In this document: piece by piece, positions 14,404-63,269 of the stretch | Numbering within the stretch: position 1 is the first letter of the stretch | Layout of the letters: each line of letters begins with the position of its first letter | Assembly: GCA_964387675.1 (NCBI GenBank) | Contig: CAYLWL010000001.1 | Span: 1,099 to 65,098, forward strand | DNA length: 64,000 nt | DNA from: an uncultured Candidatus Saccharibacteria bacterium | GTDB lineage: Bacteria > Patescibacteriota > Minisyncoccia > UBA6257 > 2-01-FULL-56-20 | Direction: 5' to 3' | Notes under the pieces: model-generated | Seen by the model: only the letters and a program-made list of their open reading frames with translations | What the model was told of the DNA's origin: nothing | Database searches by the model: none | Position numbers and translations under genes: made by a program

Positions 14404-14445
14404 GGAAATGATATCATGGAAATCATGACGCGGCCAGGCGATTCG

Positions 14446-14834: not shown

Positions 14835-14855
14835 ACGCGGAAAGAACGAACTTTC

Positions 14856-18256: not shown

Positions 18257-18281
18257 TTTGACTTTTGATTCTTGATCTTCT

Positions 18282-18761
18282 TCAAACGTGCCTGTCGGCC
18301 ACGTTCGACGCCGCGTAACTCTCCGGCTTCGTTTTCGGCTCGAAGTTATTTGCCCGAATGATGGAAACCACCTCCTGAATCATTTGCTTCGTCGGGCCGT
18401 TCTCGCCGATGTCGGCGTGAATTTCGAAAGAAAAAACCGGGAGGTCAAACTTTTTGAGTTCCGAAAGCACTTCTTTCGCGATATCGAGCGATACCAAAAC
18501 CTCGCGTATGATCCTGTCGCGGAGCGTGTGCATTTTGTCGAGTTCGAATCTTCGCCAAAAATACCTGCCGCCGTTCCCGATCCGGTGCACCACAACGGCC
18601 GTAACGAAATCGGCCCGGTTGCCGCTCAAAAGCTCCGAATCGGTGCCGATGGTCACTTTGTACTTTCTCAAGGGTTCCGTTCGCATGAACGCGATAACCT
18701 CGGCGACCACTTCGGGAACCGTGAGGCGCAATCCCAATGAACTGTGAAGAAATTCGGGCAT
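18282..18761 (-). CDS. DUF458/YkuK-like RNase H-fold protein
   Basis: MPEFLHSS...KVTIGTDSE...FVTAVVVH pattern. The first ATG of the ORF (18803) may not be the true start. Confidence 0.45.
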   Translation of the reverse strand: MPEFLHSSLGLRLTVPEVVAEVIAFMRTEPLRKYKVTIGTDSELLSGNRADFVTAVVVHRIGNGGRYFWRRFELDKMHTLRDRIIREVLVSLDIAKEVLSELKKFDLPVFSFEIHADIGENGPTKQMIQEVVSIIRANNFEPKTKPESYAASNVADRHV

Positions 18762-36894: not shown

Positions 36895-39800
36895 TTATTT
36901 GCCGAGGTTGTCTTCGATAAACCTTTTCATACTCTCTGGAGAAGCGTCAACGGTAATGTTGAAAACGCGCACGAATTTTTCCATCCGTCTTCCGTTCTCT
37001 CGGACCTCTTTTTTTCTCGTGCCAACAGACATTCTTGCCGACTCGCCGTACGCGGGTTGAAAGAAGTTGATGGCTGTGCCGTTCAATTTTTCCGGCCCGA
37101 TTTCCTCTATCACTTTTGATATTTGAGGAAATCGATTTATCACGGCGGCCCTCTCCGAATCGCGGGCAGTAGATAGTATGATTCCCTTTTTCCGATAGGG
37201 ATCGACGAGCTTATTGAATATCTGCTCGGCGCTCTTCGGCTTTTCCGGCGCCGCCGTCGCGGCTTCCGCGGGCCGAGCAACATCGACGTGGACTTCACCC
37301 GCAACCGAAGACGGAGGGGCCTCGGCTCCGGAAACCGGAACACTTTGAGCGGAAACGCCCAAACTCTCCTCTATAAACTTCTTAATTTCTACTTCCGATT
37401 GATTGATATTTATATAAAGCACCTTTTGCGCGGCGTCGTAGTCCATCCGACTGTCATCTAGATATAAATGAATTCCGCTGAATGCCGCGGCTCCGATGCC
37501 GTCAATTGCTCTTTTGATTTTATCGGCCTCCCGAAGCACCGAGCCGCACGTGGGAAACATGGTTTTGCTAATCTGTATACCCCTTGCTCTGTATTCGGCA
37601 AACAAGCGGCTGAGTTCTTTGGAGGCCTCCTCTTCGGCGTTCGCCAAAAGTAGAGCCGACTCCGCGTTGGCTCTAAGAAAAGCAATCATATCCTCCGCCG
37701 AGTCGGTGTGCCTTAAGTATATCCTCCCCCCTCTTTCCGATACCCACGATGGGTTTTCGAGATCCAACGTTATGCTCAACGGGTACCGAAGCTTCTCCGC
37801 TCCAACCGACTTCACAACTTTGTGGAGTTTTTCAACCAATAATTTCTTCTCTTGCGCCGGCATTTCATCGAACTTCAAAAAAAGCGATGATGTTATGTCC
37901 ACTCCATACATCCTTCTAAGATCTCCAAAATCCGCCGGAACTTTGCCTGCTTCTATTGCTTCTATTACTACTTTCTCTCCCCCTGGCGCTCGAGGAGTTT
38001 CCCACGGAACAGTAACCGCGGCTTCGGGAGTTGCTGGTGCTTCTTTTCCGCCACCTTTACTGCGTCTAAGAGCTTTGAGGATAGAAGATTCTCTTTTTTC
38101 GCCGCGCTCGGCTTCTTTTAGCCCCGCCGCAGGAACAGGCCCCGCTTCTTCTGCTTCTTCTGCGACCCTCCCTTTACGTATTTTATAAATCCTCCTTGCA
38201 ATCAGCGCTCCCGCAGCGGCGATACTTGCCGCAAGAATCGCTTTCAAAATCCTGTCTCCATGACGGGCCGCTTTTTCTGCGGCTTCCCTCCGCGTTTCTT
38301 CCGCAACTTGAGCTTGCGCCTCCGCGGCGAGCGCCGCGTTCACTCGCGACACGGCTTCTGCCGCCGCTTCCTTTGCTTCGTGAATGGCGTTGTCGGAAAA
38401 ATTGTTGTCCGCGTTCAAGACCTGATCGAAATGAGTAATTCTTTCAACCGTTTCCGAAGAAAGTTGGTGGCCCGGCTCTTTGATGAGTTCTCCGAGGTGG
38501 CTTATTTTTTCCGGAGTCAGATTCAGGGCCTTGCCAACTGCTTTTGAGACATCTTCTCCGGACAGCTCAAAATGGTCTCCTGCGTGGAAGCCCTTCGCGG
38601 CCGCCTTCGCCACTGTTTTCTGCAGTGTATCCTCAACATAGACCATCTGCTCGGGCGAAAACTCCCCAAAAGCAGACGGGTTGAGTTGGCGCTCGTTCAC
38701 CAAATAATCGTGCGCGATCTTCCGCGCCACGTGCGTCGCGCCCTCTCCTTTTTCCACCACGGCGCCGAATTTCTGCTCCAGGATTTCCGCTTGCGCTTTC
38801 GCGAGAACCCTTTTAGTCGCCGCTCCCGCCGTTTCTGTTTTTCTCGCTAAAACTTCCTGATTCGCGGCGGCTCGCGCCGCGGCGGCCGCTTGCGAAGCTG
38901 CTTGGGTTTTGGCCGCGGCAACTTGCTCGGCGCCGTGGTGGAAGTATGTTGAAAAGTAATCCGCCAAGGCGCCGCCAATCGCGCCACCGACGGCGCCGAC
39001 GGCCGCGCCCCGCAAAATCGCTTTCGCGACTTTCGCTCGGTCAACTTTTTTGTATTCAAAATTTACTTCTTTCAGCGTCTCTCTCGTAAACTCGGGCGGC
39101 ACAAGAGAAATTCCCGCGCGGGCCTTGTCGGACGACTCGAGTATCGCAAGAACTTGATCTCGAGAACCAACCATGCCAATTTCGCCCACCTCCTGCGCCT
39201 CTGCCTCAACCAAGACCCTCATAGCCCGCAATTCTTCTCCAAGAATTTTTATATCTTCCTCTTTGCCGGCAATCCTGGCATCTTTATAGGCCGCTTCCGC
39301 TTTGGCGAGAATCGCCGCTCGCCTTCTAAGCTGATAAGTGTCCGCTTGATGAGGCACCTCTCGAAGTTTCTCGAGAACATTCTCCACGGCAAACTTTCTG
39401 CGGATGCCGCCGCGCTCTTTTATGAGTTCGCGCACGCCGCCCGCGAGCGCGCCGCCGACGGCACCGGCCATGGAGCCCACCACCGCGCCTGCCGCGATGC
39501 CGGCTCCGAAAGTGCCGCCGAAACCCGCTACAATCGCGGCCTTCACCCCCGTTCTCGCGGCCCCGCCGACTCCGCCAACTCCAAGGCCAACCCAAAACTC
39601 GCGGCTTTTCAGGTAATCAGAAATTTTGCCGGCCAAGTTCCGCCTTCCGCTCTCGCTCTGAATTTCCTGAACGATTTCTTCCCGTTCTCGAAGCGGCATA
39701 TCCGTCGGCGCGGCGCCTTCAACAACCGCCCGGGCATCCTCGGGCCTACCAACGAGAGTATCAGCCGCTTCCCTGGCGATTCTTTCTCTTTCCGCCGCCT

Positions 39801-40434
39801 GCTCCACCTCAACCGCTCGCCTCGAAAGGCCAATGAGCTCGGGGTCATCAGATGCTCCGGGCGATCCCGTTGGTCTGTCTTCTCCGGTGGGTTTTCGCGC
39901 TTCCTCGCTTGTAACTCGCGGCGCGACTGGCTCGGCCGTATTTCCAGGCACGCCCTCTTCGAGTCGATCACTTAATTTTCTCATCAAAATAAGCGGGTCT
40001 CCCGTCTCGATTTCTGTTTTGCTAAACCCGTACGCGCTTAACACTCCTTCCATTTCCGATGGAGTAAGGTCTGGGACACCCCCCTTACTCACGGCGGCCA
40101 CCATATCCTCTGCCATCTTTCTCGTCGCAGGAGGAACTTCTTTCCCGGGACTCGGTCTTGCCTCGTCTGCCGTCTTCAATCTATCGTTGATCTCTTCGTC
40201 AATAAGACCTTCCGCGAATATAAGCTCCCGGCGACGAGTTCTTTCCTCCGGTGGCGCGTCAAACATCCATTTGATCCGATCCCAGTCTTCTTCGTCTATT
40301 TCACCTTTCGCCCATAATTTCTGCAGCTGCTTTTTGATATCTTCGCTTGTTTCTCGAGGCCTTATTTCGTTTTCGGGGCCAGCTCCTTCGTGACGAAGGC
40401 CTTTATTTTCTCTGATCATTCCTTTGTCTCCCAT
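36895..40434 (-). CDS. Giant low-complexity protein (Ala/Glu/Arg-rich, with Gly-zipper-like membrane segments)
   Basis: 1179-aa ORF. Contains GFGGTFGAGIAAGAVVGSMAGAVGGALAGG and GAAVGAVGGAIGGALADYF segments. Confidence 0.45.
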   Translation of the reverse strand: MGDKGMIRENKGLRHEGAGPENEIRPRETSEDIKKQLQKLWAKGEIDEEDWDRIKWMFDAPPEERTRRRELIFAEGLIDEEINDRLKTADEARPSPGKEVPPATRKMAEDMVAAVSKGGVPDLTPSEMEGVLSAYGFSKTEIETGDPLILMRKLSDRLEEGVPGNTAEPVAPRVTSEEARKPTGEDRPTGSPGASDDPELIGLSRRAVEVEQAAERERIAREAADTLVGRPEDARAVVEGAAPTDMPLREREEIVQEIQSESGRRNLAGKISDYLKSREFWVGLGVGGVGGAARTGVKAAIVAGFGGTFGAGIAAGAVVGSMAGAVGGALAGGVRELIKERGGIRRKFAVENVLEKLREVPHQADTYQLRRRAAILAKAEAAYKDARIAGKEEDIKILGEELRAMRVLVEAEAQEVGEIGMVGSRDQVLAILESSDKARAGISLVPPEFTRETLKEVNFEYKKVDRAKVAKAILRGAAVGAVGGAIGGALADYFSTYFHHGAEQVAAAKTQAASQAAAAARAAANQEVLARKTETAGAATKRVLAKAQAEILEQKFGAVVEKGEGATHVARKIAHDYLVNERQLNPSAFGEFSPEQMVYVEDTLQKTVAKAAAKGFHAGDHFELSGEDVSKAVGKALNLTPEKISHLGELIKEPGHQLSSETVERITHFDQVLNADNNFSDNAIHEAKEAAAEAVSRVNAALAAEAQAQVAEETRREAAEKAARHGDRILKAILAASIAAAGALIARRIYKIRKGRVAEEAEEAGPVPAAGLKEAERGEKRESSILKALRRSKGGGKEAPATPEAAVTVPWETPRAPGGEKVVIEAIEAGKVPADFGDLRRMYGVDITSSLFLKFDEMPAQEKKLLVEKLHKVVKSVGAEKLRYPLSITLDLENPSWVSERGGRIYLRHTDSAEDMIAFLRANAESALLLANAEEEASKELSRLFAEYRARGIQISKTMFPTCGSVLREADKIKRAIDGIGAAAFSGIHLYLDDSRMDYDAAQKVLYININQSEVEIKKFIEESLGVSAQSVPVSGAEAPPSSVAGEVHVDVARPAEAATAAPEKPKSAEQIFNKLVDPYRKKGIILSTARDSERAAVINRFPQISKVIEEIGPEKLNGTAINFFQPAYGESARMSVGTRKKEVRENGRRMEKFVRVFNITVDASPESMKRFIEDNLGK

Positions 40435-40443
40435 TTCTTTAAT

Positions 40444-42132
40444 TTATGCTCCTTTCGATCTCTTGATATAACGCAACATCCGATCCTTCTCTTCTCCGGA
40501 GATCCTTTTGAGTACGCAGGCCCTCTCCGCTTCTCCGGCTGGATTTGTGTTCGCGAACACGCTTTCTGCAACGGACTTCAGCCGATCCCAATCTTCTCCA
40601 TTTTCTATTTCTCCAGAGGCGTAGCGCAGATCAATATCGTTCATATAACCATTGAGGTCGGGCGCAACTTCTTCTCTTTCTTTCAATCCTGCGACAATTT
40701 CGTCGTAATCAGCCGGACTCAATAAATTTCTGTCTCTGGCATTCTCGAGGGCAAGATCGACGTCTTCCGCGCGCGATATTCTCAAAAGAAGTTCGAGGAT
40801 TTTGCCGTATTCTCTGCTTGTTTCGTATCTCCTCTCTTTTTTTGGTCCGCCGATTTCTCTCCTTAACGAATCGGCGAGGTTTCCAACGTTCCTTAAAAGT
40901 TTTGACGCCCTTTCTCTTTCGGCTTTATTGGTCTGTACTTTTCCGCCGCTCACGATTTCCTCGGTCGTCAAAGTAGGCGGCTCCAGCTGCTTGAGGTACT
41001 CCAAATAATCCCTGTAATGATCTCTCTCTGCGTCTCCTCTCGAAGCAGTTCTTTCCTGTCTCCGAGAATCCTCGATAAACTCGCGCCTCTCTTTCATCTC
41101 TACGACTTTTGCTTCGCGTTCCAAATAGTTAGCAAGGGCATCTTTGCGCGCAACTACTTGCAAGGAAGGAATAAGGCCTACGTCAAATTCTCGGTCTCTT
41201 ATTTTTTCCCAAAGCGATTCTGCTTCTGCCCGAATCTCAACAACCTCCAGCTGTTTTTGCGCAAGTTCCGAAGATGGAACAAAGTCATCTTCTAAGAAGC
41301 GGTCTTCGTCGGCAAATTCTCCCCGCGCTTCTTCTATTGACGTCGTTAACTTTCCCCCGAGACGGCCTTTCGTTGATTTCGTTTGTTTTCCCCTCTCTTC
41401 GATTCTTCCCGACGCGGTCTTTCCTTGCGCTCTTCTCTCGCTCCTGGCCTTCTCTCTTTTTTCTCTTTCGATAGCCCGAACACGACTTAAGCTTGCCTTA
41501 ACGCGCGAGAGAAAGGTGCTTGGCGGTTTGGCCTGAGATTCCGCTACTCTCGTTTCTTCTTGTGCCTCTTGTGTCTCCGCGGTTTCGGTTGTTCCCGGCA
41601 TCGCCGTCTCAACTTCCTCTGGGGGCTGAACCTCGCCGAGTCCTTCGGTTTCTTTTTTTTCAACTTCCACGGGTTCCGCAAGCGGCTCCGCCTCGATTCC
41701 TCCTTCAACTCCCGCCTCGGTTACTTCATTTACTGCCTGCTCTTCTTTTTTCATAACTTCTTCTATTGGGGCAACAGTCGGACCGGCAACCGCCGCTTCG
41801 CGTTCTTTTTGCCACTCCCTCATAATTTCGTGGAAGCGTTCTTCTGTTACCAACCTCTCATCCCTGAACAAGTCGAATACTTCTTTGGCTTCTTTTCGCG
41901 TTTGCGCCTCACGTATCATATTTTCCAAAGATCTTCGATTCTGTTCGGCGGCCTCACGCCTTTGTTCCGTGGTTATTTCTGTTGGTGAAATATTTTTCGC
42001 GCCGCCCGGCTGCTTTTTTTTCGCGGCATCTTTCGCCGCTCTTTTCAACTCACGTTGCCGCTCTTTACTTGGCGATCCGGCCTGATCCCTAGGTTGCTCT
42101 ATACTTTTGTTGTTCTCTGGTGATTTGCTCAT
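40444..42132 (-). CDS. Large charged hypothetical protein (Glu/Arg/Lys-rich)
   Basis: 562-aa ORF with a coiled-coil-like composition. Confidence 0.4.
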   Translation of the reverse strand: MSKSPENNKSIEQPRDQAGSPSKERQRELKRAAKDAAKKKQPGGAKNISPTEITTEQRREAAEQNRRSLENMIREAQTRKEAKEVFDLFRDERLVTEERFHEIMREWQKEREAAVAGPTVAPIEEVMKKEEQAVNEVTEAGVEGGIEAEPLAEPVEVEKKETEGLGEVQPPEEVETAMPGTTETAETQEAQEETRVAESQAKPPSTFLSRVKASLSRVRAIEREKREKARSERRAQGKTASGRIEERGKQTKSTKGRLGGKLTTSIEEARGEFADEDRFLEDDFVPSSELAQKQLEVVEIRAEAESLWEKIRDREFDVGLIPSLQVVARKDALANYLEREAKVVEMKERREFIEDSRRQERTASRGDAERDHYRDYLEYLKQLEPPTLTTEEIVSGGKVQTNKAERERASKLLRNVGNLADSLRREIGGPKKERRYETSREYGKILELLLRISRAEDVDLALENARDRNLLSPADYDEIVAGLKEREEVAPDLNGYMNDIDLRYASGEIENGEDWDRLKSVAESVFANTNPAGEAERACVLKRISGEEKDRMLRYIKRSKGA

Positions 42133-42139
42133 GTTTTTA

Positions 42140-43261
42140 TTAGCCCAGTAGTATGCGCGCTATTTTTTCGAGCCGTTGCGCTTTCCGTATAAGCTTGCCG
42201 TGATCTCTATCGTCGCGAGGAATGTCTGAAGCATTCTCTCGGTAAACCCTGGCGTCTCTCATGGCAACCCGGCCCATCACCATGGCTTCTTCTCTGTCCA
42301 TTTCTCTCGCAACCCGCGTAATCCTTTCTTCGAAGGCCGATTCGTCAAGCTCGCCGGCGTCGTATTCTCTTCCAAGTTCTTCGAGCCGAAGTTCCGGAGC
42401 TTGCTGTCGCGCTTCCTGCTCGGCTTTTACCTCTAATTGTCTGGAGTGCAAACTTAATATTTTTCTAATTGATGGTATTGCCGCAGGAAGTTCCGCGCCG
42501 CTCCTTTCACCGGGCACGCCGCGAACACCCTCCCAAAGACCTTCTATCTCGCCTTGCGTCTCCCGCGATTCTCTTTCGGCTTCCTCGGGCGTCGCGGGAC
42601 GGACTCCGCCCAGCACAGACATTTCTTCTTCAAAAGCTCTTTCTTTCTTTGCTTCCGGTTTCAGGTAATCTCTTCTGAATTCCGCGAAGAGCGCGTTCCA
42701 CACGGCTTCATTCCGCGTACTCCACAAGTCCTCCATTATTTCTCCGTCCGCTTTTTCCGCCGCTGCCACGCGCGCAATTTCCTCCGGCGTTTTCGCTCTT
42801 CCTTTGAGAGAAGCGAGTTTTTGTTTCAATGCTTTGTGAACTTCAAATAAAAGGTTGGCGAGGCCAGTCCTTTTGTGGCTTGCGGTTTGGAAATCCGTAA
42901 GCGCTATGATGTCTCTTGCGCCGCGAGCAGTATCAAGAGAATGCTTGCCGAACAAAGCCCACAGAAGCGTCCAATCTGCCTCGTCCAAGTCCTCCCCGAT
43001 GATTGCGTCTTTCAGCATTTGGCTGCGCGTGATCCAAAAATCTCTATCCGGAAGCAAGCGATGAACCTTATCTCTTATTTCACCGGCTTCCGCTCTCGAG
43101 ATCGTCTTACCTCCATCCCGAAGAGCGAGTATTTGAGTGCTCACCGTATCCAAAAAACCAAGCCAGCGCTCTTGGCGCAACTCCCTTTGCCGAAAGTCAA
43201 CTTGCGCTTGACCCTCTTCGCCGCCTGCTTGTTGGATTTTTCCTTCGTTTCTATTAGTCAT
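42140..43261 (-). CDS. Hypothetical charged protein
   Basis: 373-aa ORF, Glu/Arg-rich. Confidence 0.4.
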   Translation of the reverse strand: MTNRNEGKIQQAGGEEGQAQVDFRQRELRQERWLGFLDTVSTQILALRDGGKTISRAEAGEIRDKVHRLLPDRDFWITRSQMLKDAIIGEDLDEADWTLLWALFGKHSLDTARGARDIIALTDFQTASHKRTGLANLLFEVHKALKQKLASLKGRAKTPEEIARVAAAEKADGEIMEDLWSTRNEAVWNALFAEFRRDYLKPEAKKERAFEEEMSVLGGVRPATPEEAERESRETQGEIEGLWEGVRGVPGERSGAELPAAIPSIRKILSLHSRQLEVKAEQEARQQAPELRLEELGREYDAGELDESAFEERITRVAREMDREEAMVMGRVAMRDARVYRENASDIPRDDRDHGKLIRKAQRLEKIARILLG

Positions 43262-43476
43262 TGTTGTATATTATATTCTTTAATTTTAGCATAATACCAG
43301 TAAGAAGTCAAGTCCTCGATTTGTGCCTCTTAGGCCTAAATATAGATATAAAGTAACATAAAAAATACTAAATTAAAAGAAGTGCCCGGGCTGGGAGTCG
43401 AGTTGGACCGTGAAGTCCTTCTCTGTCCCAGCGCCGGGCTGGTTGCTCCGCGTTGCGCGGAGCGCTGACTGGAGGA

Positions 43477-44841
43477 TCAGCTCAGGCTGACGAGCCCGAG
43501 CTCGACGGCGCGGGCGACCGCCTTCGGCCGGTCGTACCGCTTCGCCACTTCGTGGGCGGAGACGATCGACTTGGCCATCTCCTGGCCACCGTCGGCCAGG
43601 TTCCTGATTTCCGCGTACATCGCGGCGAGGCGCTCGTCGGTGAGCCCCTCGATGAAGGTCAGGATCTCCATCGACTTCGTCCGACCGTTGCCGGCCACCG
43701 CGGGCTTCGTGGCGGGCGCCACGGTCTTCGTCGTGGGTGCCGCAACCGGCGTGGCCGCCGTCTTGACCTTCGGAGTGATGGACTTGACCTCAACGGCGGG
43801 AGCCGCCGGGGTCAGCTTCGCGAGCTCGGTCTCGAGCTGGGAGATCTCAGCCTTGGACGCCTTGAGCGCGTCGCCATCCTCGGCTTCCAACGCCTTGGCC
43901 TTGCGGGCCTTGGCCTCGGTGAGCCGGATATTGAGCGCCACGCGCGGGTCGGGCCTGCTGGCCTCCGCGAGCTTCGCGAGCTCGGCCTCGATCTGGGAGA
44001 TCTCGGCCTTGGACGCCTTGAGCGCGTCGCCATCCTCGGCTTCCAACGCCTTGGCCTTGCGGGCCTTGGCCTCGGTGAGCCGAGAGTTGAGCGTCGCCTT
44101 CTGGTCGGCGGGCTTGGCGGGCGCCTTGCCCTGCTGGCTCTTCGGCGCGGCCGTCGCCTCGAACTCCTTGCGGAGCTCGGCGCCGACCGTTACGTTCTTC
44201 CTTTCGAACCAGCCGAGGAGCTTCTCGAAGCTCTGCCTGTCCCACGTCCTCGTCTTCGAGGCTTTCGCCTTCGAATCCGAGTCCGCGAGCCGCTGCTTCA
44301 AGCGCGCCAAGAACCCCGTCGCCGCCTCGCCGCTGGCCTGCTCTTTCGGTTCCGTCGCGCCGACCGGCTTGCGGAACTTTTTGAGCCCCGCACGCAGGAG
44401 CGCCTCGACGCTCTCCTGGTTGAACCGATCGATCGGATGGCCCGACGTCCTGCCGAGCTTCTTCGCCGCCCGGAGAAGCTCCAGGCGACCCTTGCCCGAC
44501 AGGTAGAGAATAACGTAGTTGCCCACGTTCTTCTCCTCGTCACCGACCATGTCGATGAAGGAGTCTGTCAGGTACAACATGTCGAGCTCCCCCTGAAGGG
44601 GACCCCTGTCCTCCTCCGGGATGGCCGCCATGCTCTTGCTGAGCGCGTCGACTGCGCCCCACATGGCCTTCTCTCTCGCCGAGAGCTCCTCCGATTGAGG
44701 AACTCCTTCCGGTCCGCGCGCGGCCCTGATCGCCAAAAGCTCGACAGCGATTCTGCCTGCCTCCGCCACGATGTCTCCGTGCTTCTCCACCATCGCCTGA
44801 TGCTCGTTCGCCATGACTGTCCTCCAAATGCCCCACGCCAT
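43477..44841 (-). CDS. Coiled-coil protein with an internal 40-aa tandem duplication, inside the high-GC island
   Basis: LNSRLTEAKARKAKALEAEDGDALKASKAEISQIEAELAKL occurs twice. The nucleotide repeat is at about 43830-43910 and 43950-44030. The plus-strand overlapping ORF is an R/G/L-rich artefact. Confidence 0.45.
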   Translation of the reverse strand: MAWGIWRTVMANEHQAMVEKHGDIVAEAGRIAVELLAIRAARGPEGVPQSEELSAREKAMWGAVDALSKSMAAIPEEDRGPLQGELDMLYLTDSFIDMVGDEEKNVGNYVILYLSGKGRLELLRAAKKLGRTSGHPIDRFNQESVEALLRAGLKKFRKPVGATEPKEQASGEAATGFLARLKQRLADSDSKAKASKTRTWDRQSFEKLLGWFERKNVTVGAELRKEFEATAAPKSQQGKAPAKPADQKATLNSRLTEAKARKAKALEAEDGDALKASKAEISQIEAELAKLAEASRPDPRVALNIRLTEAKARKAKALEAEDGDALKASKAEISQLETELAKLTPAAPAVEVKSITPKVKTAATPVAAPTTKTVAPATKPAVAGNGRTKSMEILTFIEGLTDERLAAMYAEIRNLADGGQEMAKSIVSAHEVAKRYDRPKAVARAVELGLVSLS

Positions 44842-55271: not shown

Positions 55272-56273
55272 GTGGCAGAAATGCGGAATCCTCGAATTGC
55301 GTGCGTCTTCGCTCCCGGCTTTAAGCGCGGCGCGATGGCAGTTGGTGCGTCTCGTTGCCTTTTTGAAAATGACATTCGACCCGGAATCATCGCGGGTTGT
55401 TCAGCCGGAGCCCTGGCCGCAGGGAGTGTTGCCGCATGGGACGAAGAAGAAATCGAAAGGGCGCAGAAAATCTGGTCCGCGCTCAGCCCCGGGAAAATCT
55501 CTCGACCGAGATGGGCCGACGACCTCTTTCTCGGCTCGCTCGTGGCCGGCTCCCTCTTGCACGTGATCCCGCCCCTCGCGAAGGGCGAGAAATCGAGAAA
55601 AGCGGAACGAGTCGTCCGCGCGCTCCTTTCTCTTGGAATGCATGCCGCTTCCATTATGGCTTTCTTGAGACAATCGTCGATCTTCTCGAACGACCCGCTC
55701 TATAAACTGCTTACCGCGCTTGACGCGGAAAAAATCTTCGCTTCAAAAACGAAAATGATTGCCACGGCGGCGAAGTACGGAAGCGGAGAACGATCGATAT
55801 ACACCAACTTTCTCCAAAGAGATCGGAGCGGGGAACGATTACTGAAGGGGCTTATGGCTTCTTCGACTATCGTCCCGACTTTTCCTCCGATTGAGATCGA
55901 CGGGGAATACGAATTTGACGGCGTATTCGCGAAGCAGGACTTTTTGGCGTTCGACTTGGTCGAGAAATACTGCGCGTGCGATTATATCCTCTTCTTCGTG
56001 TTTTACTGGCTGCCCAGGGCGGAAGAAGTGGGCGGATTCCTTTCGGTTTCCGACCACGCGCACGAACTGATGGTCGAATACAGAATGCGGAGTATCCTGG
56101 AGCGGCTGCCCCAAGCAACAAAAGACAAGCTGATCATTGTTGAGCTTAGTGAGCCGCCCGAGAAAGCGGATCTCCGGAGGTTTTCGAAATACGACGTTCA
56201 GGATTGGATCTCCGAAGGGCATAGAACCACCGAGAGAATGCTCGTTGAAAGAGGATGGGCAAAAGAGAGGTGA
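55272..56273 (+). CDS. Patatin-like phospholipase
   Basis: GxSxG serine motif in GCSAGALAAG, and a Gly-rich oxyanion region. Confidence 0.6.
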   Translation: MAEMRNPRIACVFAPGFKRGAMAVGASRCLFENDIRPGIIAGCSAGALAAGSVAAWDEEEIERAQKIWSALSPGKISRPRWADDLFLGSLVAGSLLHVIPPLAKGEKSRKAERVVRALLSLGMHAASIMAFLRQSSIFSNDPLYKLLTALDAEKIFASKTKMIATAAKYGSGERSIYTNFLQRDRSGERLLKGLMASSTIVPTFPPIEIDGEYEFDGVFAKQDFLAFDLVEKYCACDYILFFVFYWLPRAEEVGGFLSVSDHAHELMVEYRMRSILERLPQATKDKLIIVELSEPPEKADLRRFSKYDVQDWISEGHRTTERMLVERGWAKER

Positions 56274-56403
56274 TGTCGTGGATATTCCTCGCGCAGCGCG
56301 CGAGGAATAATGTTACGCCGTTCCGTCTTGCGCAAGGCAACGTGCCAAGCGAAAAGACGGAAGGGCCTCTTTTTTTTGATTTTGTTTTAGTAACGGCATT
56401 TTG

Positions 56404-56487
56404 TGGGCGAGGTGGGATTTGAACCCACACTTCCTTTCGGAAACACGGTTCTAAGCCGTGCGCCTATACCAGTTCGGCTACTCGCCC
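56404..56487 (-). tRNA. tRNA-Leu (anticodon TAG) with a long variable arm
   Basis: The reverse complement reads GGGCGAGTAGCCGAACTGGTATAGGCGCACGGCTTAGAACCGTG...GTGGGTTCAAATCCCACCTCGCCCA. Confidence 0.8.
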
Positions 56488-57114
56488 GTAAAATCTTTGC
56501 GTCACCGCGAACTTTCGGGATAGCTTACAAACTGATTGATTATAGTACATAAACGAAAATAATTTTAGAGAGTCGGCTTTCGCGTAAACCAGTACGCCGA
56601 TGCCGTCTTTTTTCGATTCGATCCAACCTCCTTCTATTTTCGTGATATTCTGAATTTCCGACTTAACCCACTCTAAAAACCTTGGACTGGCGGAGCACAA
56701 TCTAATTCTTAGCTGCGGATATTTACTTTCGGGATGAGAAAAAAATCCGATGCTCCCATCTCCGTCAATACAACCACGGAAAAAATCAGCGAAGTATTCT
56801 TTCGGAATTTTTAACTCCGTAAGTGTCTTGGATTTTGCCGGTTTCAGACCTATGGTGGCCAGAAAATCGTAAAAATCCCTATCGCCAAATTGCACAACAA
56901 AATATTTCTTTTCCTTTGACCCACCCCTACTCTTGCGACCTATTCTGTTTGACAATCCCAGGCATAGCTTAAAAATGAGAACCAGTTCCTCGTCTTTGCT
57001 TGTAAAGTTAATATGTCTTCCGTCTATGGACAAATTCCCGTCGGTGGTTATTAGTCCTATGGCATAAGCGAATCTCGAACTCCACACAATTTTTACCTTT
57101 CTCATCCTGTGCAC
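56464..57114 (-). CDS. LAGLIDADG homing endonuclease (two-motif, single-chain)
   Basis: AYAIGLITTDGNLSIDG and FFRGCIDGDGSIG motifs. The 3' end of the ORF overlaps the 5' 24 nt of tRNA-Leu. Confidence 0.7.
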   Translation of the reverse strand: MHRMRKVKIVWSSRFAYAIGLITTDGNLSIDGRHINFTSKDEELVLIFKLCLGLSNRIGRKSRGGSKEKKYFVVQFGDRDFYDFLATIGLKPAKSKTLTELKIPKEYFADFFRGCIDGDGSIGFFSHPESKYPQLRIRLCSASPRFLEWVKSEIQNITKIEGGWIESKKDGIGVLVYAKADSLKLFSFMYYNQSVCKLSRKFAVTQRFYGRVAELV

Positions 57115-57221
57115 AGGTTTATTATACTAAACCACATAGCGTCTGCCAATGTTTTTGACAAACGGATTTCCGCGTGGTAATATGTTGGCAGCTCAACGTT
57201 GACAAGAAGGTGGAGGAAACA

Positions 57222-58325
57222 ATGTCTGCGAGATCCAGGCTTCTGTTTGTAATTGCCGTTCTTGCAACCGTCGTTGCTTTGAGATACGCCTACAACAGTT
57301 CCGCGATTACAGGGGCTATCTTTGGAGTTTTGAATCTCGCCTTTGTCGCTTTCGTCGTTCTTCTCGGCTTCGCTTCGTTTTGGCCAATCCCCGCAATCTG
57401 CTATGGAGAACGAAGATTTTGGGGTTGGAGAGATTCGCGCCTAGTGAGCGGTTGGACGTTCTGGATTCCCGAGAAACTCGGAGGAAGAATAGCAACTTTA
57501 TCGACCACGCCGCAGGAAGCAACGGGGAGTGTGGCTTTCACGACGAACGACACAATCTTCGAGAGCAGCAGGGCGAAGCCGCAAGTTATATGCGACTATT
57601 ACCTGAAATACAAAGCGGATCCGAACGTCAGAGATAGTGCCAAACGCAATGCCTTTCTCGGCACAACGCCAGCCGCCATCGAAAGAGAAATCAACGCGAC
57701 TCTGAAGGGGAAGCTTGGAAACCTCGGCGGAGTCATTGGAAGCAATGACTTTCTCGTGAACCGGAGCGCGATCGAGGACTTCATCCGCTGTACGCTCCAA
57801 ATGGAAGTACCGCCGCATAAACGCCACAATGGCTGCCGAGTTCCCGGTTGCAACTATGTGGGAACAAGAGAAATCCCGAGCGGAAAAATTCTGGATTTCT
57901 ACAACACCCACCGCGAGGCCATCGGCGAAGAAATCCGCACGGAAAAAAGTAGAGCCACAGACATGTCTGGAATCGAGAGAAGCAACGGCATAGACGTCGA
58001 ACTCTTCAAACTCGAGAAGGTCGACTTCTCCGAGGAAACCAAAAAGGCGCTCAACGAAGAAGAGGTTCAAAGAGCGCGCGCTCGAGGACTTGAGATTCAG
58101 CGCCTTGAAGCAAAGAAATTGATGGACACCCTTGTCGGGCTTTCACCGGAAGAAGCCCTAACGGGCACTCAAGCGGCCTTGCTCGGAACACCGCTCAAGG
58201 ACATCAGAGTAAGAGGCGGTGGTCAAGCGGTCATTATTGAGGGCGGCATCCCCGGCCTCGGCGGAGCAAGCGGAAAGGCAGATAAAGGCGGCTCGGGCGG
58301 TGGAGGCAGAGGAGGTCGGCGATGA
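57222..58325 (+). CDS. Hypothetical membrane protein with a C-terminal coiled-coil and a Gly-rich tail (possibly SPFH-like)
   Basis: SD aaggtggagg before ATG 57222. N-terminal transmembrane helices, then GGGQAVIIEGGIPGLGGASGKADKGGSGGGGRGGRR. Confidence 0.3.
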   Translation: MSARSRLLFVIAVLATVVALRYAYNSSAITGAIFGVLNLAFVAFVVLLGFASFWPIPAICYGERRFWGWRDSRLVSGWTFWIPEKLGGRIATLSTTPQEATGSVAFTTNDTIFESSRAKPQVICDYYLKYKADPNVRDSAKRNAFLGTTPAAIEREINATLKGKLGNLGGVIGSNDFLVNRSAIEDFIRCTLQMEVPPHKRHNGCRVPGCNYVGTREIPSGKILDFYNTHREAIGEEIRTEKSRATDMSGIERSNGIDVELFKLEKVDFSEETKKALNEEEVQRARARGLEIQRLEAKKLMDTLVGLSPEEALTGTQAALLGTPLKDIRVRGGGQAVIIEGGIPGLGGASGKADKGGSGGGGRGGRR

Positions 58326-58819: not shown

Positions 58820-58825
58820 ACCAAA

Positions 58826-58850
58826 CCGCGCACATAGATATGTGCGCGGT
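58826..58850. terminator. Hairpin terminator between convergent genes
   Basis: ccgcgcacatagatatgtgcgcgg followed by a T-rich tract. Confidence 0.5.
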
Positions 58851-58879: not shown

Positions 58880-59239
58880 TTAGCAGCCCCCTACGGTCGT
58901 GCTGAATAAGCTACTCACGATGAGCGGCACGCCTCGCGCGAACAGCGCGACGACGATGGCTACCGCGGCGTAAATCAGTTGATGGCTCGCGCCCTTTACT
59001 TTCTCCGGATCGCCGGCCGCGGTCAAATACTTGAAAGCGGCAATCAAAACGAAGACAACCGCGGCGATAACAAGAAACGTGAAGAGCCAGCCAACGATGA
59101 CATTACAAACAAACGACTGAAGACCGCTCACGCTCGTGATCGGCGGCGGCGGCGCGGACTGCGCTCCCACGATAAGGGGCGACAGATACGAGACGGCGCT
59201 CGCGAATGGCGCGGTCAGCTTTTTAAAACTCTTAAACAT
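58880..59239 (-). CDS. VirB2/TrbC-like pilin-type small membrane protein (paralog 1)
   Basis: Signal/transmembrane segment, then KYLTAAGDPEKVKGASHQLIYAAVAIVVAL, then a second transmembrane segment. Confidence 0.5.
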   Translation of the reverse strand: MFKSFKKLTAPFASAVSYLSPLIVGAQSAPPPPITSVSGLQSFVCNVIVGWLFTFLVIAAVVFVLIAAFKYLTAAGDPEKVKGASHQLIYAAVAIVVALFARGVPLIVSSLFSTTVGGC

Positions 59240-59293
59240 AATGATAATCTGTGGTTTTCGACCTTTCAGAAAGTTTCTACTCAAAAAGTTGGG

Positions 59294-59713
59294 TTAACCG
59301 ATGATCGCGTCGCTGCCACCGCCCCCTCCGCCGCCGCAGTTAAATCCGGGAATAGTGCCTCCGGGGAATATGCTGGAGATTAATACCGGAAAGCCCTTGG
59401 CGATTAAAGCGACAACCACTGCCACGGCCGCGTAGGTTATGGTTTTGTGCGCCTTCGAAACTTTTTCGGAGTCGTCGCCTGCCCGAAGATAAATATACGC
59501 CGCCCATATAACCATAATGGCGGCGAGAGCTATCAAAATGGTGAACATCGTGTCAAAAACGGGGCAAAGAACTTTGCTCACAACATCCTGGGCTCCCCTT
59601 AACTCTATGGCGGCATAGGCGGAGGGAAAAAGCGCGAACTGGACAACGGCGAAAATAGCTCCCCGACCAACCCATTGATTCCTTGCGATAAAACCTAAAA
59701 TCCTGTTTCTCAT
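59294..59713 (-). CDS. VirB2/TrbC-like pilin-type small membrane protein (paralog 2)
   Basis: IYLRAGDDSEKVSKAHKTITYAAVAVVVAL, with a Gly-rich C-terminus. Confidence 0.45.
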   Translation of the reverse strand: MRNRILGFIARNQWVGRGAIFAVVQFALFPSAYAAIELRGAQDVVSKVLCPVFDTMFTILIALAAIMVIWAAYIYLRAGDDSEKVSKAHKTITYAAVAVVVALIAKGFPVLISSIFPGGTIPGFNCGGGGGGGSDAIIG

Positions 59714-59736
59714 TGCTTTTTAGTATAACACATTCG

Positions 59737-60069
59737 CTATTGAACTCCAAATATGCCGAAAATCAGGCCTTGCACGCTCTTTGCAAGGAGTATGACCACA
59801 AGCCCGATTGCCGCATAGAGTATGGTTTGTCTGCCTTTCGTGAACTTCTCCGGATCGCCGGCCGCGGTCATGATCTGGAAGCCGCCCCAGAGCACCATAA
59901 TGGCGGCAATCGGCCCGCCGATCACGAAGAGAAAATCGGTAATCTTGTCGGTGATGCAGGAAAGGTCGCATCCACTCAATGGATTTAAAAGTCCGCCCCC
60001 CACGTGCGTATCGGCGTAGGCCTTGTTGAATAGTCCCGAAAAATATAAACCTGTTTTCGCGAGCCACAT
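59737..60069 (-). CDS. VirB2/TrbC-like pilin-type small membrane protein (paralog 3)
   Basis: FQIMTAAGDPEKFTKGRQTILYAAIGLVVIL. Confidence 0.5.
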   Translation of the reverse strand: MWLAKTGLYFSGLFNKAYADTHVGGGLLNPLSGCDLSCITDKITDFLFVIGGPIAAIMVLWGGFQIMTAAGDPEKFTKGRQTILYAAIGLVVILLAKSVQGLIFGIFGVQ

Positions 60070-60080
60070 AGGTAACCTTA

Positions 60081-60596
60081 TTATAGCGCTCCGCCGCAAA
60101 AGCTCAAACCCCGCGAATCCTCGCCACGGGGCAAGCCATAGCCGGACAAATCCTCGGGCGACGCGCCAACCCAAACCTTGAGCTTGCAGGCGTCGGCTTC
60201 GTTTATTCCCAAAATTTCAAGAAAATCTTTTTCCGCCAAATGTCTGTTTGTGTCAAAGGGCGCGGCAGAAATGTAAACAGAGAAACCGCTTGTGTACGTG
60301 TCGTAATTAATCCCGAAGCCGTCTGTTGATGTTATAACAACAAATTGCTCTCTCGCCCCGACCGCGGTCTTGTAAAAGTTCTTCACCTCAACCGCGCCCC
60401 TTGGAGTTCCTATGGACAGCATATCCCCTTCGGGAATGCTGGCCAATCGAGAAACGACGGAGCTGATTTCTCCGGCGACGCCGCCAGACGATCCGCCGGT
60501 CGAATCGGATCCTCCAAACAAGATCTTCGAAATAAAAAATCCTGCGGCTGTTACAAAAACGATTGCTGTTGCGACGAAGATTGTTTTCTTGCTCAT
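60081..60596 (-). CDS. Hypothetical secreted or membrane-anchored protein
   Basis: N-terminal transmembrane/signal segment, followed by a Gly/Ser-rich linker. Confidence 0.35.
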   Translation of the reverse strand: MSKKTIFVATAIVFVTAAGFFISKILFGGSDSTGGSSGGVAGEISSVVSRLASIPEGDMLSIGTPRGAVEVKNFYKTAVGAREQFVVITSTDGFGINYDTYTSGFSVYISAAPFDTNRHLAEKDFLEILGINEADACKLKVWVGASPEDLSGYGLPRGEDSRGLSFCGGAL

Positions 60597-60606
60597 GTCC
60601 TTATGT

Positions 60607-61407
60607 TTATCGAGGCGGCACCACCACGTCCCAGTGGTTGCTCTCGAGCGCGTAAATCGCCCCGCTCGGAGCCCGGTACATCTTCGCTCCGTCGCTTCTG
60701 TCGGGAAGCTGTTGGTAGTTGTTTCGAATATAGTTTGTTAACGCCGAACCCCCGTCCCGACTGCGCAAATCTACTTTATAACCGTTCGCGTGACTCACGG
60801 CACCCGACTCGTGTTCGCCGCCCGTCGCCGAAGTAACCGTAACTTCGCAAGAAGCGTTTGCGGCTTTGCAGGCATTCGTAAGGCGGATAACTTCGTCCAC
60901 GGTGCCTTGTTTGAGGCCCGCCAATCTGATCGGGCCGTTCACGGCAACACCCGCGTTGCGGAACTGGTCGTAGGATTGTTGCTGACTCAACCCAAGTCCG
61001 GCGGGGCTGCCGCCGCCAGCATCTCCACTCGATCCGCCGCCCGCCGGAATCGGCGAAAGCGCGGGCAGGGAAAGCTTGGTGAGATCGGGATTAATGATGT
61101 TCAAAATGAAGTACGCTCCGAAAAGCAGAAGTAATCCCGAGATCGCGCCCTGGATCCATTCTTTCCCTTCGGTCTGTCCGGAGGGATTGCCAGCGGCGGT
61201 CATATATTTCACTCCCCCGAAGATAATCGCGCCCAGCGCCAGTACGCCGGAGATCATCAGGGCAAAGTTGTAAAGCTGCGCTATAAATTCATTGGGTTGC
61301 GGAGCCGCCGAAAGGCCCGGGAGGCCAATGTTGATATGAACCTGCGCGAAAGCGGAGTATAGCGGCGCTGAAAATAAAACAATGGCCAGGGCAAGGCGCC
61401 TTTTCAT
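60607..61407 (-). CDS. Pilin-like N-terminal domain fused to a C-terminal extracellular domain (paralog 4)
   Basis: Signal peptide MKRRLALAIVLFSAPLYSAFA, then VKYMTAAGNPSGQTEGKEWIQGAISGLLLL, then about 150 aa more. ATGA overlap with the upstream gene. Confidence 0.45.
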   Translation of the reverse strand: MKRRLALAIVLFSAPLYSAFAQVHINIGLPGLSAAPQPNEFIAQLYNFALMISGVLALGAIIFGGVKYMTAAGNPSGQTEGKEWIQGAISGLLLLFGAYFILNIINPDLTKLSLPALSPIPAGGGSSGDAGGGSPAGLGLSQQQSYDQFRNAGVAVNGPIRLAGLKQGTVDEVIRLTNACKAANASCEVTVTSATGGEHESGAVSHANGYKVDLRSRDGGSALTNYIRNNYQQLPDRSDGAKMYRAPSGAIYALESNHWDVVVPPR

Positions 61408-61871
61408 TGGGAACTTTGGGGCACTTGGCAATTCAACGCCGAGGTGATCCCTGGCAGATCGACCCCCAAGAACGTGACGATTGATTTGATCACCACAAAC
61501 GCCAGCAAGACGATCACCATCCCGATGAGCGTCCCCCGTAAAATCTTTTTGCCGGTTTCGATGTTCCCCGGATTCGCGCCGGCCGTCAAAATCAGAATGC
61601 CGCCCCACGCGAACAAAATCGGCGTCAGGGCGAAAAGCGCGATCGTCATAACAAAGTAGATGATATTGACTCCCGTGTCGATGAAATCGCAGAAACTTTT
61701 GCAGGCGTTCGGATTCGTAGCCGGGTCGCCGTGGCAAGAGAGAAGTCCGCTATCGGGAAAACCCCAAAAACCCAAAGGGAAGATGCTCTGCGCGCGATGC
61801 GCGGTATCGGCGAAAACCAGATACGGCGCGGCCACCAAAAGCAGTAAGATTGAGAATATGACTTTTCTCAT
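61404..61871 (-). CDS. VirB2/TrbC-like pilin-type small membrane protein (paralog 5)
   Basis: Signal peptide, then LILTAGANPGNIETGKKILRGTLIGMVIVLL. Confidence 0.45.
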   Translation of the reverse strand: MRKVIFSILLLLVAAPYLVFADTAHRAQSIFPLGFWGFPDSGLLSCHGDPATNPNACKSFCDFIDTGVNIIYFVMTIALFALTPILFAWGGILILTAGANPGNIETGKKILRGTLIGMVIVLLAFVVIKSIVTFLGVDLPGITSALNCQVPQSSQ

Positions 61872-61940: not shown

Positions 61941-63269
61941 TCATTTACTCGTCATCAACTGGCTCGCTTGGTCTTGCGCCTGCCGTAACGCGTGTTCCGA
62001 ATCCGCTTTTCCGCTTAACACCCTCGTTATCGCGTCATTTATTATTCTATCAATAATCTCGTCGTCCGCCTCGTGCCACGACTGGGCGGTAAGCGCCTGC
62101 CTCACGAAAACTCCCATATCCGGATCGTCCAGTTTTTGGGCGATGAGAGATCGGAGGGCGGGCGGGTGGCCGGTTGCGTCAAGATATAATTTCGAAGCGT
62201 CGGGGTTTGTCGTCGCGAAAAGCGCGAAATCCCATGCCCAACCGATGGATTTGCTCTGTTTTGAAACCGCGAGGCCCCAGTAACGAGGGTAGTTCACGCC
62301 GGTCTCCGACCCCGTGGGTTGGAGCATCGGAGCAACCGCGACATTCAGGAATGGGCTCTTGCCCCCGATCTTGTCAATCGCCGATTTGTAATTGAACACA
62401 ATAGCCGTCTTGCCGTTCGCGAAACTGTCGATCGAATTCTGTTGGGCATCATTCCAGGTGTACCGGGGCGAACCGGCATTCGCAAATTGAAGATAAAAGT
62501 TGAAAGCGGCCAGTCCCGGATTTTTGTTGTCGTCCCGCGCCGAAGCAAAAGTGGCCGACGAAAAGTTGTTGGTTGTCATCTGCGTGCCGTTTTGAAGCAT
62601 CAAGAGAACCAGAAGATCGACTCCCGCATCAACGCTTTGCTCGGAGCCGCCGATCGCCGCGGCCGCTCTCACGATTTGCCCGCTCTCATTCAACGTCTTG
62701 AGCCGCGGCACGATAGAGAGAAATTCATCCCATGTTTTCGGCGGAAAAACGATCGCGGCTTGGTTGAAGAGGTCTTTATTGTAGATCGTCGCCATCGTGT
62801 CCACGTACAGCGGGAGAGCGAAAATCTGCTTTGCCTCGCCTGTGGCGGGGCTCCCGGAAGCCGACACGAAGTCCTGTTCCGCAACCGCGGGGAAAAAATT
62901 TCTGAATCCCGCAAGCCCCAACTGCGCCGGCAAAATCGGGTACAATTTATTCATGTGCTTCGGCAGGGCCCTATTTCTGACATAGAGCACGTCTGGTCCG
63001 GCGCCTTCGGCCAATGCGTCAACCAGAACGCCATCGTACTTCGCGGGATCAATCTCTTTATAGGTTACTTGAACGTTTGGTCTGAACGCCTTGTAGCTCT
63101 GAATAACTTTTTCTATGGCCGCGGAGCTCTCGGTGCCCCAAAAATTCAAAGACACCTGCTCCCTAACCCCGCTGTCGCGGCGAACGTTAAGGCCAACAAC
63201 AACGAAGATAAGGATGAAGACAACGGCGATGCCCGCGAGTATGAAGATTTGTTTCTGGGAAAGTTTCAT
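61941..63269 (-). CDS. ABC transporter substrate-binding protein (sugar-type, SBP family 1)
   Basis: N-terminal transmembrane/signal anchor. 442 aa with an extracellular solute-binding pattern. Confidence 0.6.
   Translation of the reverse strand: MKLSQKQIFILAGIAVVFILIFVVVGLNVRRDSGVREQVSLNFWGTESSAAIEKVIQSYKAFRPNVQVTYKEIDPAKYDGVLVDALAEGAGPDVLYVRNRALPKHMNKLYPILPAQLGLAGFRNFFPAVAEQDFVSASGSPATGEAKQIFALPLYVDTMATIYNKDLFNQAAIVFPPKTWDEFLSIVPRLKTLNESGQIVRAAAAIGGSEQSVDAGVDLLVLLMLQNGTQMTTNNFSSATFASARDDNKNPGLAAFNFYLQFANAGSPRYTWNDAQQNSIDSFANGKTAIVFNYKSAIDKIGGKSPFLNVAVAPMLQPTGSETGVNYPRYWGLAVSKQSKSIGWAWDFALFATTNPDASKLYLDATGHPPALRSLIAQKLDDPDMGVFVRQALTAQSWHEADDEIIDRIINDAITRVLSGKADSEHALRQAQDQASQLMTSK

Follow-up and report, generated by a model that had tools for sequence, protein, structure and literature searches.

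A tandem array of T4SS-pilin-family genes on a Patescibacteria chromosome, one of them fused to a predicted LAS-type peptidase domain

Which system do tandem pilin-like genes on a patescibacterial chromosome serve, and why does one of them carry an additional extracytoplasmic domain? These questions are raised by a 64,000-nucleotide stretch of contig CAYLWL010000001.1 (hereafter the window), in which six tightly packed minus-strand genes occupy positions 58880-61871 in the order p5-p4-x-p3-p2-p1, with intergenic gaps of -4 to 54 nt. A reading of this DNA made from its letters and open reading frames (ORFs) without database searches, here called the sequence-only reading, had described five co-oriented genes of VirB2/TrbC-like pilins at this site. 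The five genes are indeed found there as pilin paralogs, p1 to p5, all on the minus strand, but a sixth co-oriented gene, x, which does not encode a pilin, had been overlooked. Taking the evidence together, we favour, with a fair degree of confidence, a composite interpretation in which the array is a chromosomal Patescibacteria operon for a specialised set of PF18895 pilins of a monoderm-type type IV secretion system (T4SS), and in which p4 is a wall peptidase belonging to this set.

Hydropathy analysis revealed a similar architecture for each of the five paralogs, with an N-terminal signal-like segment and then two hydrophobic helices, which are connected by a short polar loop bearing a common motif. 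The signal-like segments of p2-p5 end in A-(Y/F)-A. The largest of the plain paralogs, p5, has a signal peptide (MRKV...LVFA, followed by DT) and an N-terminal stretch rich in Cys, as well as the hairpin of two helices; its hydrophobic segments are at residues 1-25, 63-99 and 108-142. The loop motif is clear in p1 (YLTAAGDPEK), p3 (IMTAAGDPEK) and p4 (YMTAAGNPSG), but degenerate in p2 (YLRAGDDSEK) and p5 (ILTAGANPGN). The signal and membrane segments that the sequence-only reading ascribed to all five proteins are thus present throughout, whereas the motif is only partly kept.

Profile searches placed these proteins in a defined family. Four of the five pass the gathering cut-off of PF18895 (T4SS_pilin, 26.6 bits), with 33.2 bits for p1, 35.8 for p2, 57.9 (1.1e-15) for p3 and 40.1 for p4, whereas p5 stays below it with 23.0 bits. 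All five retrieve each other by jackhmmer at E <= 1e-21, by which p5 is joined to the others on iteration. In addition, p1 passes the NCBIfam model NF045849 (Mbov_0395 family pilin-like conjugal transfer protein, curated cut-off 40 bits) with 41.7 bits; p2 and p3 both score 29.9 and p4 scores 15.8, while p5 has no match. Overall, these similarities go well beyond what chance would produce, and p1-p5 are very likely members of the T4SS-pilin family.

The paralog p4 combines the pilin module with a Gly/Ser/Pro-rich linker and a C-terminal domain (Table 1). The structure predicted by AlphaFold2 has a local confidence score (predicted local distance difference test, pLDDT) of 85.8 over the whole protein, and of 94.3 for the C-terminal domain alone, with a predicted TM-score (pTM) of 0.89. 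Two helices, H38-70 and H75-105, form the hairpin with pLDDT values above 90, whereas the linker, PALSPIPAGGGSSGDAGGGSPAGLG, has values of 51-60 that drop below 50 at residues 124-135. The extra extracellular domain of about 150 residues proposed before is therefore retained as a fusion to a predicted extracytoplasmic domain, but refined to a linker of ~30 residues and a domain of ~130 residues. Its position behind the second helix should place this domain outside the membrane.

Structural similarity search of the model against the PDB using Foldseek revealed that the C-terminal domain resembles the N-terminal domains of Hedgehog proteins, with a query-normalised TM-score of ~0.55 and probabilities of 0.9-1.0. 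Against predicted viral structures the best E-values were 4.4e-5 and 5.4e-4, and among the matches are a phage lysin with several domains and proteins annotated as Peptidase M15B. At the level of sequence, the domain has no match in Pfam, NCBIfam, PHROGs or the PDB, including a search of the PDB with a profile of the family. About 60 full-length homologues of p4 are present in candidate phyla radiation (CPR) metagenomes, and in an alignment of 59 sequences the residues G164, H199, H206, G209, K211, D213, E255, H258 and D260 are invariant. They belong to the conserved pattern ...TGGxH...SHANGYKVD...ExxHWD, which comprises an H-x6-D motif (H206-D213) and an E-x-x-H-W-D motif (E255-S-N-H258-W-D260). 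Five of these residues, H199, H206, D213, E255 and H258, are more than 90% conserved in a wider set of 150 sequences.

Several of these features are shared with the LAS/MEROPS M15 proteins, including VanX, VanY, the Streptomyces DD-carboxypeptidase, phage L-Ala-D-Glu endolysins and the N-domain of Sonic hedgehog (Shh). They have in common a mixed alpha/beta sandwich, an H-x6-D motif with Gly at position +3 (SHANGYKVD against LHYEGRAVD of Shh), a conserved upstream His, and a Glu three residues ahead of a conserved His, the E-x-x-H spacing being that of VanX. Alignment by hhalign set VTSATGGEH..SHANGYKVD of p4 on VTEGWDEDGHH..LHYEGRAVD of Shh, so that H206 and D213 fall on Shh H141 and D148, the zinc ligands for which the H-x(6)-D motif has been defined (PMC6027127). 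The predicted structure thus makes a LAS-type (Hedgehog/DD-peptidase) fold very probable. The invariance of H199, H206, D213, E255 and H258 is what an active site would be expected to show; the domain is most probably a zinc peptidase acting on peptidoglycan peptides, and the activity of a peptidoglycan peptidase is the reasonably likely assignment.

Is this fusion an isolated event? When 1.84 billion cluster representatives were searched exhaustively with HMMER, 786 relatives of the C-terminal domain had E-values of 1e-3 or lower, and 264 had values of 1e-10 or lower; of the best 150, 91 carry a match to PF18895, while a match to a peptidase model is absent from all. The domain constitutes a family of its own that counts ~790 clusters at 50% identity, in most cases joined to a T4SS pilin module. 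The p4 protein itself is 100% identical to HY434_02595 of a metagenome-assembled genome (MAG) of Candidatus Liptonbacteria (Patescibacteria/CPR), which places the organism within the class Paceibacteria. A pattern scan with one genome per species found 46 loci; it was based on a 17-sequence alignment and used one exact peptide pattern, hence its counts are lower bounds that are biased to the canonical SHA[NS]GYK[VI]D. ORF and HMM analysis of the scanned loci, together with loci fetched earlier, identified the pilin::LAS fusion in 27 loci, the window counted. All 27 are on CPR-type contigs, assigned to Zambryskibacteria, Liptonbacteria, Paceibacterota and Moraniibacteriota, with some MAGs under other labels. 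Unfused, secreted copies of the domain exist in Streptomyces, Actinomadura and Nocardioides and, more distantly, in Negativicutes and the fungus Coprinopsis cinerea (P0120; L017, L020, L021, L023, L025, L030, L031 and L041; alignment A5). One further copy lies within a giant protein of 2624 aa on a contig labelled Pacearchaeota.

The link to a T4SS comes from the genomic context of the fusion in other genomes. In seven loci (L004-L007, L009, L015 and L016) it lies inside a T4SS core cluster with the order VirB6(TrbL_3) ... PrgI - TraC-like - VirB4 - one or two small genes - fusion - conserved protein of ~400 aa, and the clusters that bear it adjoin yidC-rnpA-dnaA. Moreover, a published survey (PMC12102498, Table S1) counts as VirB4-positive a related Liptonbacteria genome (L008, GCA_001818655.1) that has the same array as the window. 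Two observations on the core clusters may be added. For the VirB4 of L006 (6245-8116), all 120 relatives among the matches listed (P0258-P0377) are 87-100% identical, nearly all of them 87-92%, each representing a separate 90%-identity cluster, whereas among pilin-family proteins from the same loci identity is no more than 20-60%. None of the matches listed stems from the HY434 assembly, which is uninformative as to a VirB4 of that genome. A small protein of the four-helix-bundle family 23S_rRNA_IVP is encoded within the T4SS clusters of L004 (5923-6294) and L005 (5566-5961); a relative with 37% identity is encoded in the window at 17888-18379, distant from the pilin array and near a retroelement.

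A second wall-degrading activity accompanies the fusion in several loci. Pilin-domain (PF18895) proteins that carry SLT lytic-transglycosylase domains stand beside it in L013, L016, L019 and L035 (Table 1), and a protein of L034 (10406-12892) is composed of a subtilase, a pilin module and an SLT domain; the array in the window contains no SLT gene. The T4SS loci of the CPR repeatedly include a glycosidase together with a LAS-peptidase, and in the Paceibacteria branch both are anchored by a pilin hairpin. In p4 itself, Pfam detected neither an SLT nor a CHAP domain, so it lacks the catalytic domains by which VirB1-like proteins are defined.

These data suggest how the products of the array might act together. 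We propose that p1-p5, as their signal peptides indicate, would be exported by Sec and cleaved by signal peptidase, and that in each hairpin, by analogy to the topology of VirB2, the ends would face outward and the TAAGDPEK loop would be cytoplasmic. A VirB4/VirB6/PrgI machine encoded elsewhere would then extract the hairpins and build a surface filament or channel stalk, as is established for VirB2. The putative zinc-peptidase domain of p4, on its flexible linker, would be located at the outer face or on the filament, where it would most likely cleave the peptide stems or cross-links of peptidoglycan. In this way p4 would provide the peptidase half of a VirB1-like wall-opening function that lets the apparatus through the cell's own wall. 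Alternatively, p4 incorporated in the filament might attack the wall of the epibiont's host cell. Because orthologues of p4 sit in T4SS clusters, we slightly favour the own wall as target. A more far-reaching version, which we put forward only tentatively and consider rather doubtful, is that the T4SS pilin hairpin of the Paceibacteria branch is a carrier module for wall enzymes (LAS, and SLT in sister loci), which would be built into or docked on the filament and breach the host wall, and that the solute-binding protein (SBP) encoded directly upstream would capture the released products.

Several results weigh against the proposed T4SS pilin set with its wall peptidase. In the window, Pfam found no VirB4, VirD4 or VirB6 in the 59 larger ORFs scanned among the 94 with 150 aa or more, and jackhmmer searches with the T4SS proteins of two CPR clusters against all window ORFs of at least 50 aa found no VirB4, VirD4, VirB6, PrgI or TraC-like protein; the statement of the sequence-only reading that no VirB4 or VirD4 ATPase is encoded here is borne out by both searches. 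Its assignment of a T4SS-pilin architecture holds for PF18895 and, in the case of p1, for NF045849, but not for the classical TrbC/VirB2 family PF04956 (cut-off 27.9 bits), where p3 (21.3), p2 (20.4) and p4 (12.9) are below threshold and p1 and p5 have no match. The profile match to solved VirB2 chains is likewise non-significant (E 0.28), and a T4SS pilus has not been observed in any Patescibacterium, reviews going no further than a 'potential to elaborate conjugative pili' (PMC12857230). As to the enzyme, no M15, VanY or HH_signal model of Pfam, NCBIfam or PHROG matches p4 or any of the 150 family members, the E-values of the PDB fold search are weak (0.02-0.5), and the second metal motif reads H-W-D where H-x-H is canonical. 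Finally, the data fit the own wall and the host wall as targets alike.

Other explanations of the locus have to be compared with this interpretation. The sequence-only reading had seen in the paralog expansion a sign of antigenic diversification, that is, of a recent five-paralog expansion that varies a surface filament. The idea has been put forward for VirB2 paralogs in Bartonella and Anaplasma and was also raised for Patescibacteria in a published survey (PMC12102498). The paralogs are strongly divergent, with 21-44% identity within the window in the core-domain comparison, and p2 resembles an extra copy of p1, both of which would be in line with this idea. However, p5, p4, p3 and p1 have positional orthologues (L008, L012, L010, L038 and L043) at 39-60% identity. 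They comprise orthologues of p5 in L008 (9091-9555, 39%) and L012 (8446-8949, 45%), of p3 in all five loci at 41-54%, and of p1 in L008, L012, L010 and L038 at 45-59%, and their identity exceeds that of every within-genome pair except p1/p2 and p2/p3. Because the orthologues are closer than the window's own paralogs, antigenic variation is disfavoured; moreover, the gene order is conserved across genomes with differing upstream genes, one member bears a fixed enzymatic fusion, and no repeats or recombination cassettes were found. We thus regard it as improbable. The closest relative of p2 is p1 (42%), and p2 has no orthologue of its own in L008, L012, L010 and L038, whose p1-type genes match p2 second; judged from these similarities, it probably arose later, as a copy of the p1 type within this lineage. 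By the same comparison, the array appears to be a fixed set of specialised subunits of old origin, akin to major and minor subunits, and not a rapidly varying antigen family. A T4SS-independent function is suggested by another neighbour, since a gene of the SBP_bac_1 family heads the fusion-bearing pilin array in 8 of the 27 loci (the window, L008, L012, L029, L033, L034, L035 and L039), despite differing genes further upstream, which are gyrA in one set and RNase J plus a methyltransferase in the other. From this conserved adjacency, the SBP may be functionally tied to the pilin and peptidase genes. The hairpins could then be plain anchors of a surface module without any pilus, in which SBP, wall peptidase and x scavenge fragments of the host wall; the distance of the array from any virB4, at least 58 kb on one side, would agree with it, as would the proposal that patescibacterial surface hydrolases free host nutrients (PMC11665869). 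Yet the same fusion family lies inside the T4SS core cluster in seven other genomes, where an SBP gene is absent, and four plain pilin-family genes without an enzyme domain are apparently co-transcribed with p4. The window SBP (Pfam SBP_bac_1, 5.7e-23; one N-terminal transmembrane segment) matches only sugar binders, with weak NCBIfam scores, and no ABC permease or ATPase gene adjoins its gene, which is flanked by gyrA and p5. Altogether, such a scavenging module is unlikely.

Gene x bears on a further explanation, in which p4 and x form a toxin-immunity pair of a LAS antibacterial effector, either delivered to other cells or displayed in their direction, and a protein that shields the wall of the producer. 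The product of x has one transmembrane anchor, a low-complexity linker and a small extracytoplasmic domain with two invariant Cys residues, its invariant residues being G67, F105, E122, C137 and LSFC164-167. Homologues are found directly beside the fusion in L010, L012, L038, L026, L027 and L036, and in L009 one copy overlaps the start of the fusion and a second lies ~2 kb downstream. The position of x next to the fusion in 7 of the 27 loci and its extracytoplasmic Cys pair would suit an immunity protein, and so would, for the effector, the stand-alone secreted copies of the C-terminal domain in Streptomyces, Actinomadura and a fungus, as well as two of its 150 best relatives, one located behind a PT-HINT pretoxin domain and one matching an extracellular contractile injection system (eCIS) core domain. 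On the other hand, x is absent from most fusion loci, including L008, L004-L007, L015 and L016; it stands on either side of the fusion, upstream as often as downstream; and it has no match in Pfam, NCBIfam, PHROG or the PDB and resembles no known immunity family. A toxin-immunity pair is improbable, and x may be a recurrent membrane-anchored partner of the p4 enzyme with an accessory or inhibitory role. It is very improbable that the C-terminal domain of p4 is a non-catalytic binding module, which would present an adhesin for the host wall or glycans on the pilin, akin to the use of the fold in Hedgehog signalling. Its best matches among solved structures are Hedgehog ligands rather than enzymes and its second metal motif is non-canonical, but the five putative active-site residues are invariant or nearly so across the family, and the matches in the viral library are lysins and M15B peptidases.

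The preferred interpretation, a specialised T4SS pilin set with a wall peptidase, can be set against known systems. The tandem pilin array itself is of a known kind and ordinary for Patescibacteria, a point on which the sequence-only reading was silent. A search of 3,035 Patescibacteria genomes with PF18895 and PF04956 found VirB2-like pilins in 1,948 VirB4-positive assemblies, and 441 tandem arrays have been published (Quinonero-Coronel et al. 2025, PMC12102498). In Southlakia epibionticum, transposon sequencing showed that the series of pilin genes in its T4SS cluster (SEML1_0014-0019) is essential (Wang et al. 2023, PMC10633639). The present array agrees with the published ones in phylum, in PF18895 membership, in its chromosomal site and in its tandem arrangement of divergent genes (2-11 in the published arrays, sometimes interrupted by non-pilin genes), and the mean within-array identity of ~25% reported there is similar to the values found here. 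It differs in that it is not beside virB4, is headed by an SBP gene and has one member fused to a LAS-type peptidase domain. Neither report mentions enzyme-fused pilins or gene x (PMC12102498, PMC10633639), and the fusion family, its pilin::SLT siblings, the partners x and SBP, and the paralogs as ancient specialised types were not found in the searchable literature.

Compared to the TrbC/VirB2 pilins (PF04956), such as those of the A. tumefaciens T-pilus and the F-pilus (TraA), the paralogs share the long signal peptide, the two hydrophobic helices with a short charged loop, and a length of ~70-100 residues once cleaved. They differ in their sub-threshold PF04956 scores, in the monoderm host, in the absence of VirB5, VirB7, VirB9 and VirB10, and in being known from genes alone. 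We know of no classical VirB2 with an enzyme domain. The pilin-like protein Mbov_0395 of a Mycoplasma integrative and conjugative element (ICE) is akin to p1, which passes the cut-off of its family; this agrees with a relationship reported between the Patescibacteria T4SS and the MPF-FATA class, in which Tenericutes are included. In contrast to the array, it is a single gene within the ICE, and p2-p5 do not pass its model.

The Gram-positive VirB1-like hydrolases TraG of pIP501, PrgK of pCF10 and CD419/TrsG resemble p4 in being membrane-anchored and extracytoplasmic. They are encoded in T4SS clusters, as are the p4 orthologues of the seven core-cluster loci but not p4 in the window. They combine the cutting of glycan and peptide, which the pair of pilin::SLT and pilin::LAS proteins in related loci would match. 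However, these hydrolases have a plain N-terminal transmembrane anchor and a CHAP/NlpC or LytM peptidase on one polypeptide, whereas the p4 system has a pilin-hairpin anchor, a predicted LAS-fold peptidase, and the two activities on separate proteins. A counterpart by description within the phylum is SEML1_0007 (1113 aa) of S. epibionticum, an essential protein encoded directly downstream of virB4 with a C-terminal Hedgehog/DD-peptidase domain, whose neighbour SEML1_0006 is lysozyme-like plus cysteine proteinase (Table S2, PMC10633639). It shares with p4 the C-terminal fold class, the phylum and, with the orthologues of the L004-L007 type, the site in a T4SS cluster, but it is four times longer, has not been reported as a pilin fusion, and is likened to p4 by description, not by sequence.

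The T4SS is essential in the only genetically tractable Patescibacterium, and its role has been called 'completely unknown' (PMC11665869). Most genomes with VirB2-like pilins have no recognisable VirB1 wall hydrolase (PMC12102498). An unannotated LAS-type peptidase paired with a pilin module, together with the parallel pilin::SLT proteins, is a candidate for the missing VirB1 function, and the fusion family offers a handle on how ultrasmall epibionts cross a cell wall, be it their own or that of the host. To see in the array fixed specialised subunits and not variable antigens would also alter how such arrays should be read. Should the pilin hairpin prove to be a carrier of wall enzymes, the pilus would be an enzymatic drill for epibiotic feeding, which would give the T4SS of these bacteria a concrete function.

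Table 1. Coordinates of the array, of the modules of p4 and of associated features (window positions unless a locus is named)
Feature	Position	Strand	Description
SBP_bac_1 solute-binding protein gene	61941-63269	-	directly upstream of the array
p5	61404-61871	-	155 aa, pilin-family paralog
p4	60607-61407	-	266 aa, predicted pilin::peptidase fusion
p4 pilin module	61078-61296	-	residues ~38-110, helix-loop-helix hairpin; T4SS_pilin stretch
p4 linker	60991-61077	-	residues ~111-139, Gly/Ser/Pro-rich, flexible
p4 LAS-like domain	60610-60990	-	residues ~140-266, Hedgehog/DD-peptidase-like
x	60081-60596	-	171 aa, non-pilin, between p4 and p3
p3	59737-60069	-	110 aa, start ATG at 60069, pilin-family paralog
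p2	59294-59713	-	139 aa, pilin-family paralog, Gly-rich C-terminal tail
p1	58880-59239	-	119 aa, start ATG at 59239, pilin-family paralog
Terminator-like hairpin	58825-58850	-	11-bp stem, 7 G-C pairs, 30 nt past the p1 stop; consensus scan
pilin::SLT protein, L013	10360-11412		adjoins the fusion
pilin::SLT protein, L016	10339-11415		adjoins the fusion
pilin::SLT protein, L019	10174-11100		adjoins the fusion
pilin::SLT protein, L035	9099-10169		adjoins the fusion

The refined gene models of the array, with 155/266/171/110/139/119 aa from p5 to p1, are identical in length to public gene calls on three independent metagenome contigs. The start codon of p4 overlaps the stop codon of p5 as ATGA. 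An ORF of 376 aa was considered as the true p4 and rejected, for it starts too early and in its upstream portion runs over p5 in a different frame, and the public calls give 266 aa. The hairpin after p1 probably marks the end of the operon, a weak indication, as the promoter and terminator scans were at the level of shuffled controls and terminator-like sites in the region are not above the shuffled expectation.

The window as a whole is ordinary chromosome, with Pfam matches to glycosyltransferases, FtsK, RecA, PNPase, FtsH, SHMT, FolD and GyrA. Directly beside the array, on the opposite strand, lies the gene of an SPFH/Band-7-like membrane protein with a Gly-rich tail (57174-58325), and a gene for a patatin-like phospholipase (55272-56273) is found ~2.6 kb away from the array. 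In this phylum, phospholipases at the cell surface have been suggested to act as effectors on the host envelope (PMC11665869).

Further from the array, four large co-oriented minus-strand ORFs of 1179, 562, 373 and 454 aa (36895-44841) lie where GC skew and AT skew are both strongly negative. They have no Pfam or PHROG match except a sub-threshold Duffy_binding match on the 373-aa ORF, and no similarity to the T4SS proteins of L004 and L005. The retroelement mentioned above is a diversity-generating retroelement (13462-17212), with a reverse-transcriptase ORF at 13462-14403 on the minus strand (RVT_1, 1.4e-19), a template repeat of 140 nt (14849-14988) and a variable repeat (15327-15466). The latter encodes the C-terminal end of a 634-aa ORF without Pfam match (15308-17212, minus strand), and 19 of the 21 mismatches between the repeats are at adenines of the template copy. 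In addition, a tRNA-Leu(tag) gene (56403-56487, minus strand) abuts and slightly overlaps a LAGLIDADG_3 homing-endonuclease-like ORF on the same strand (56464-57114).

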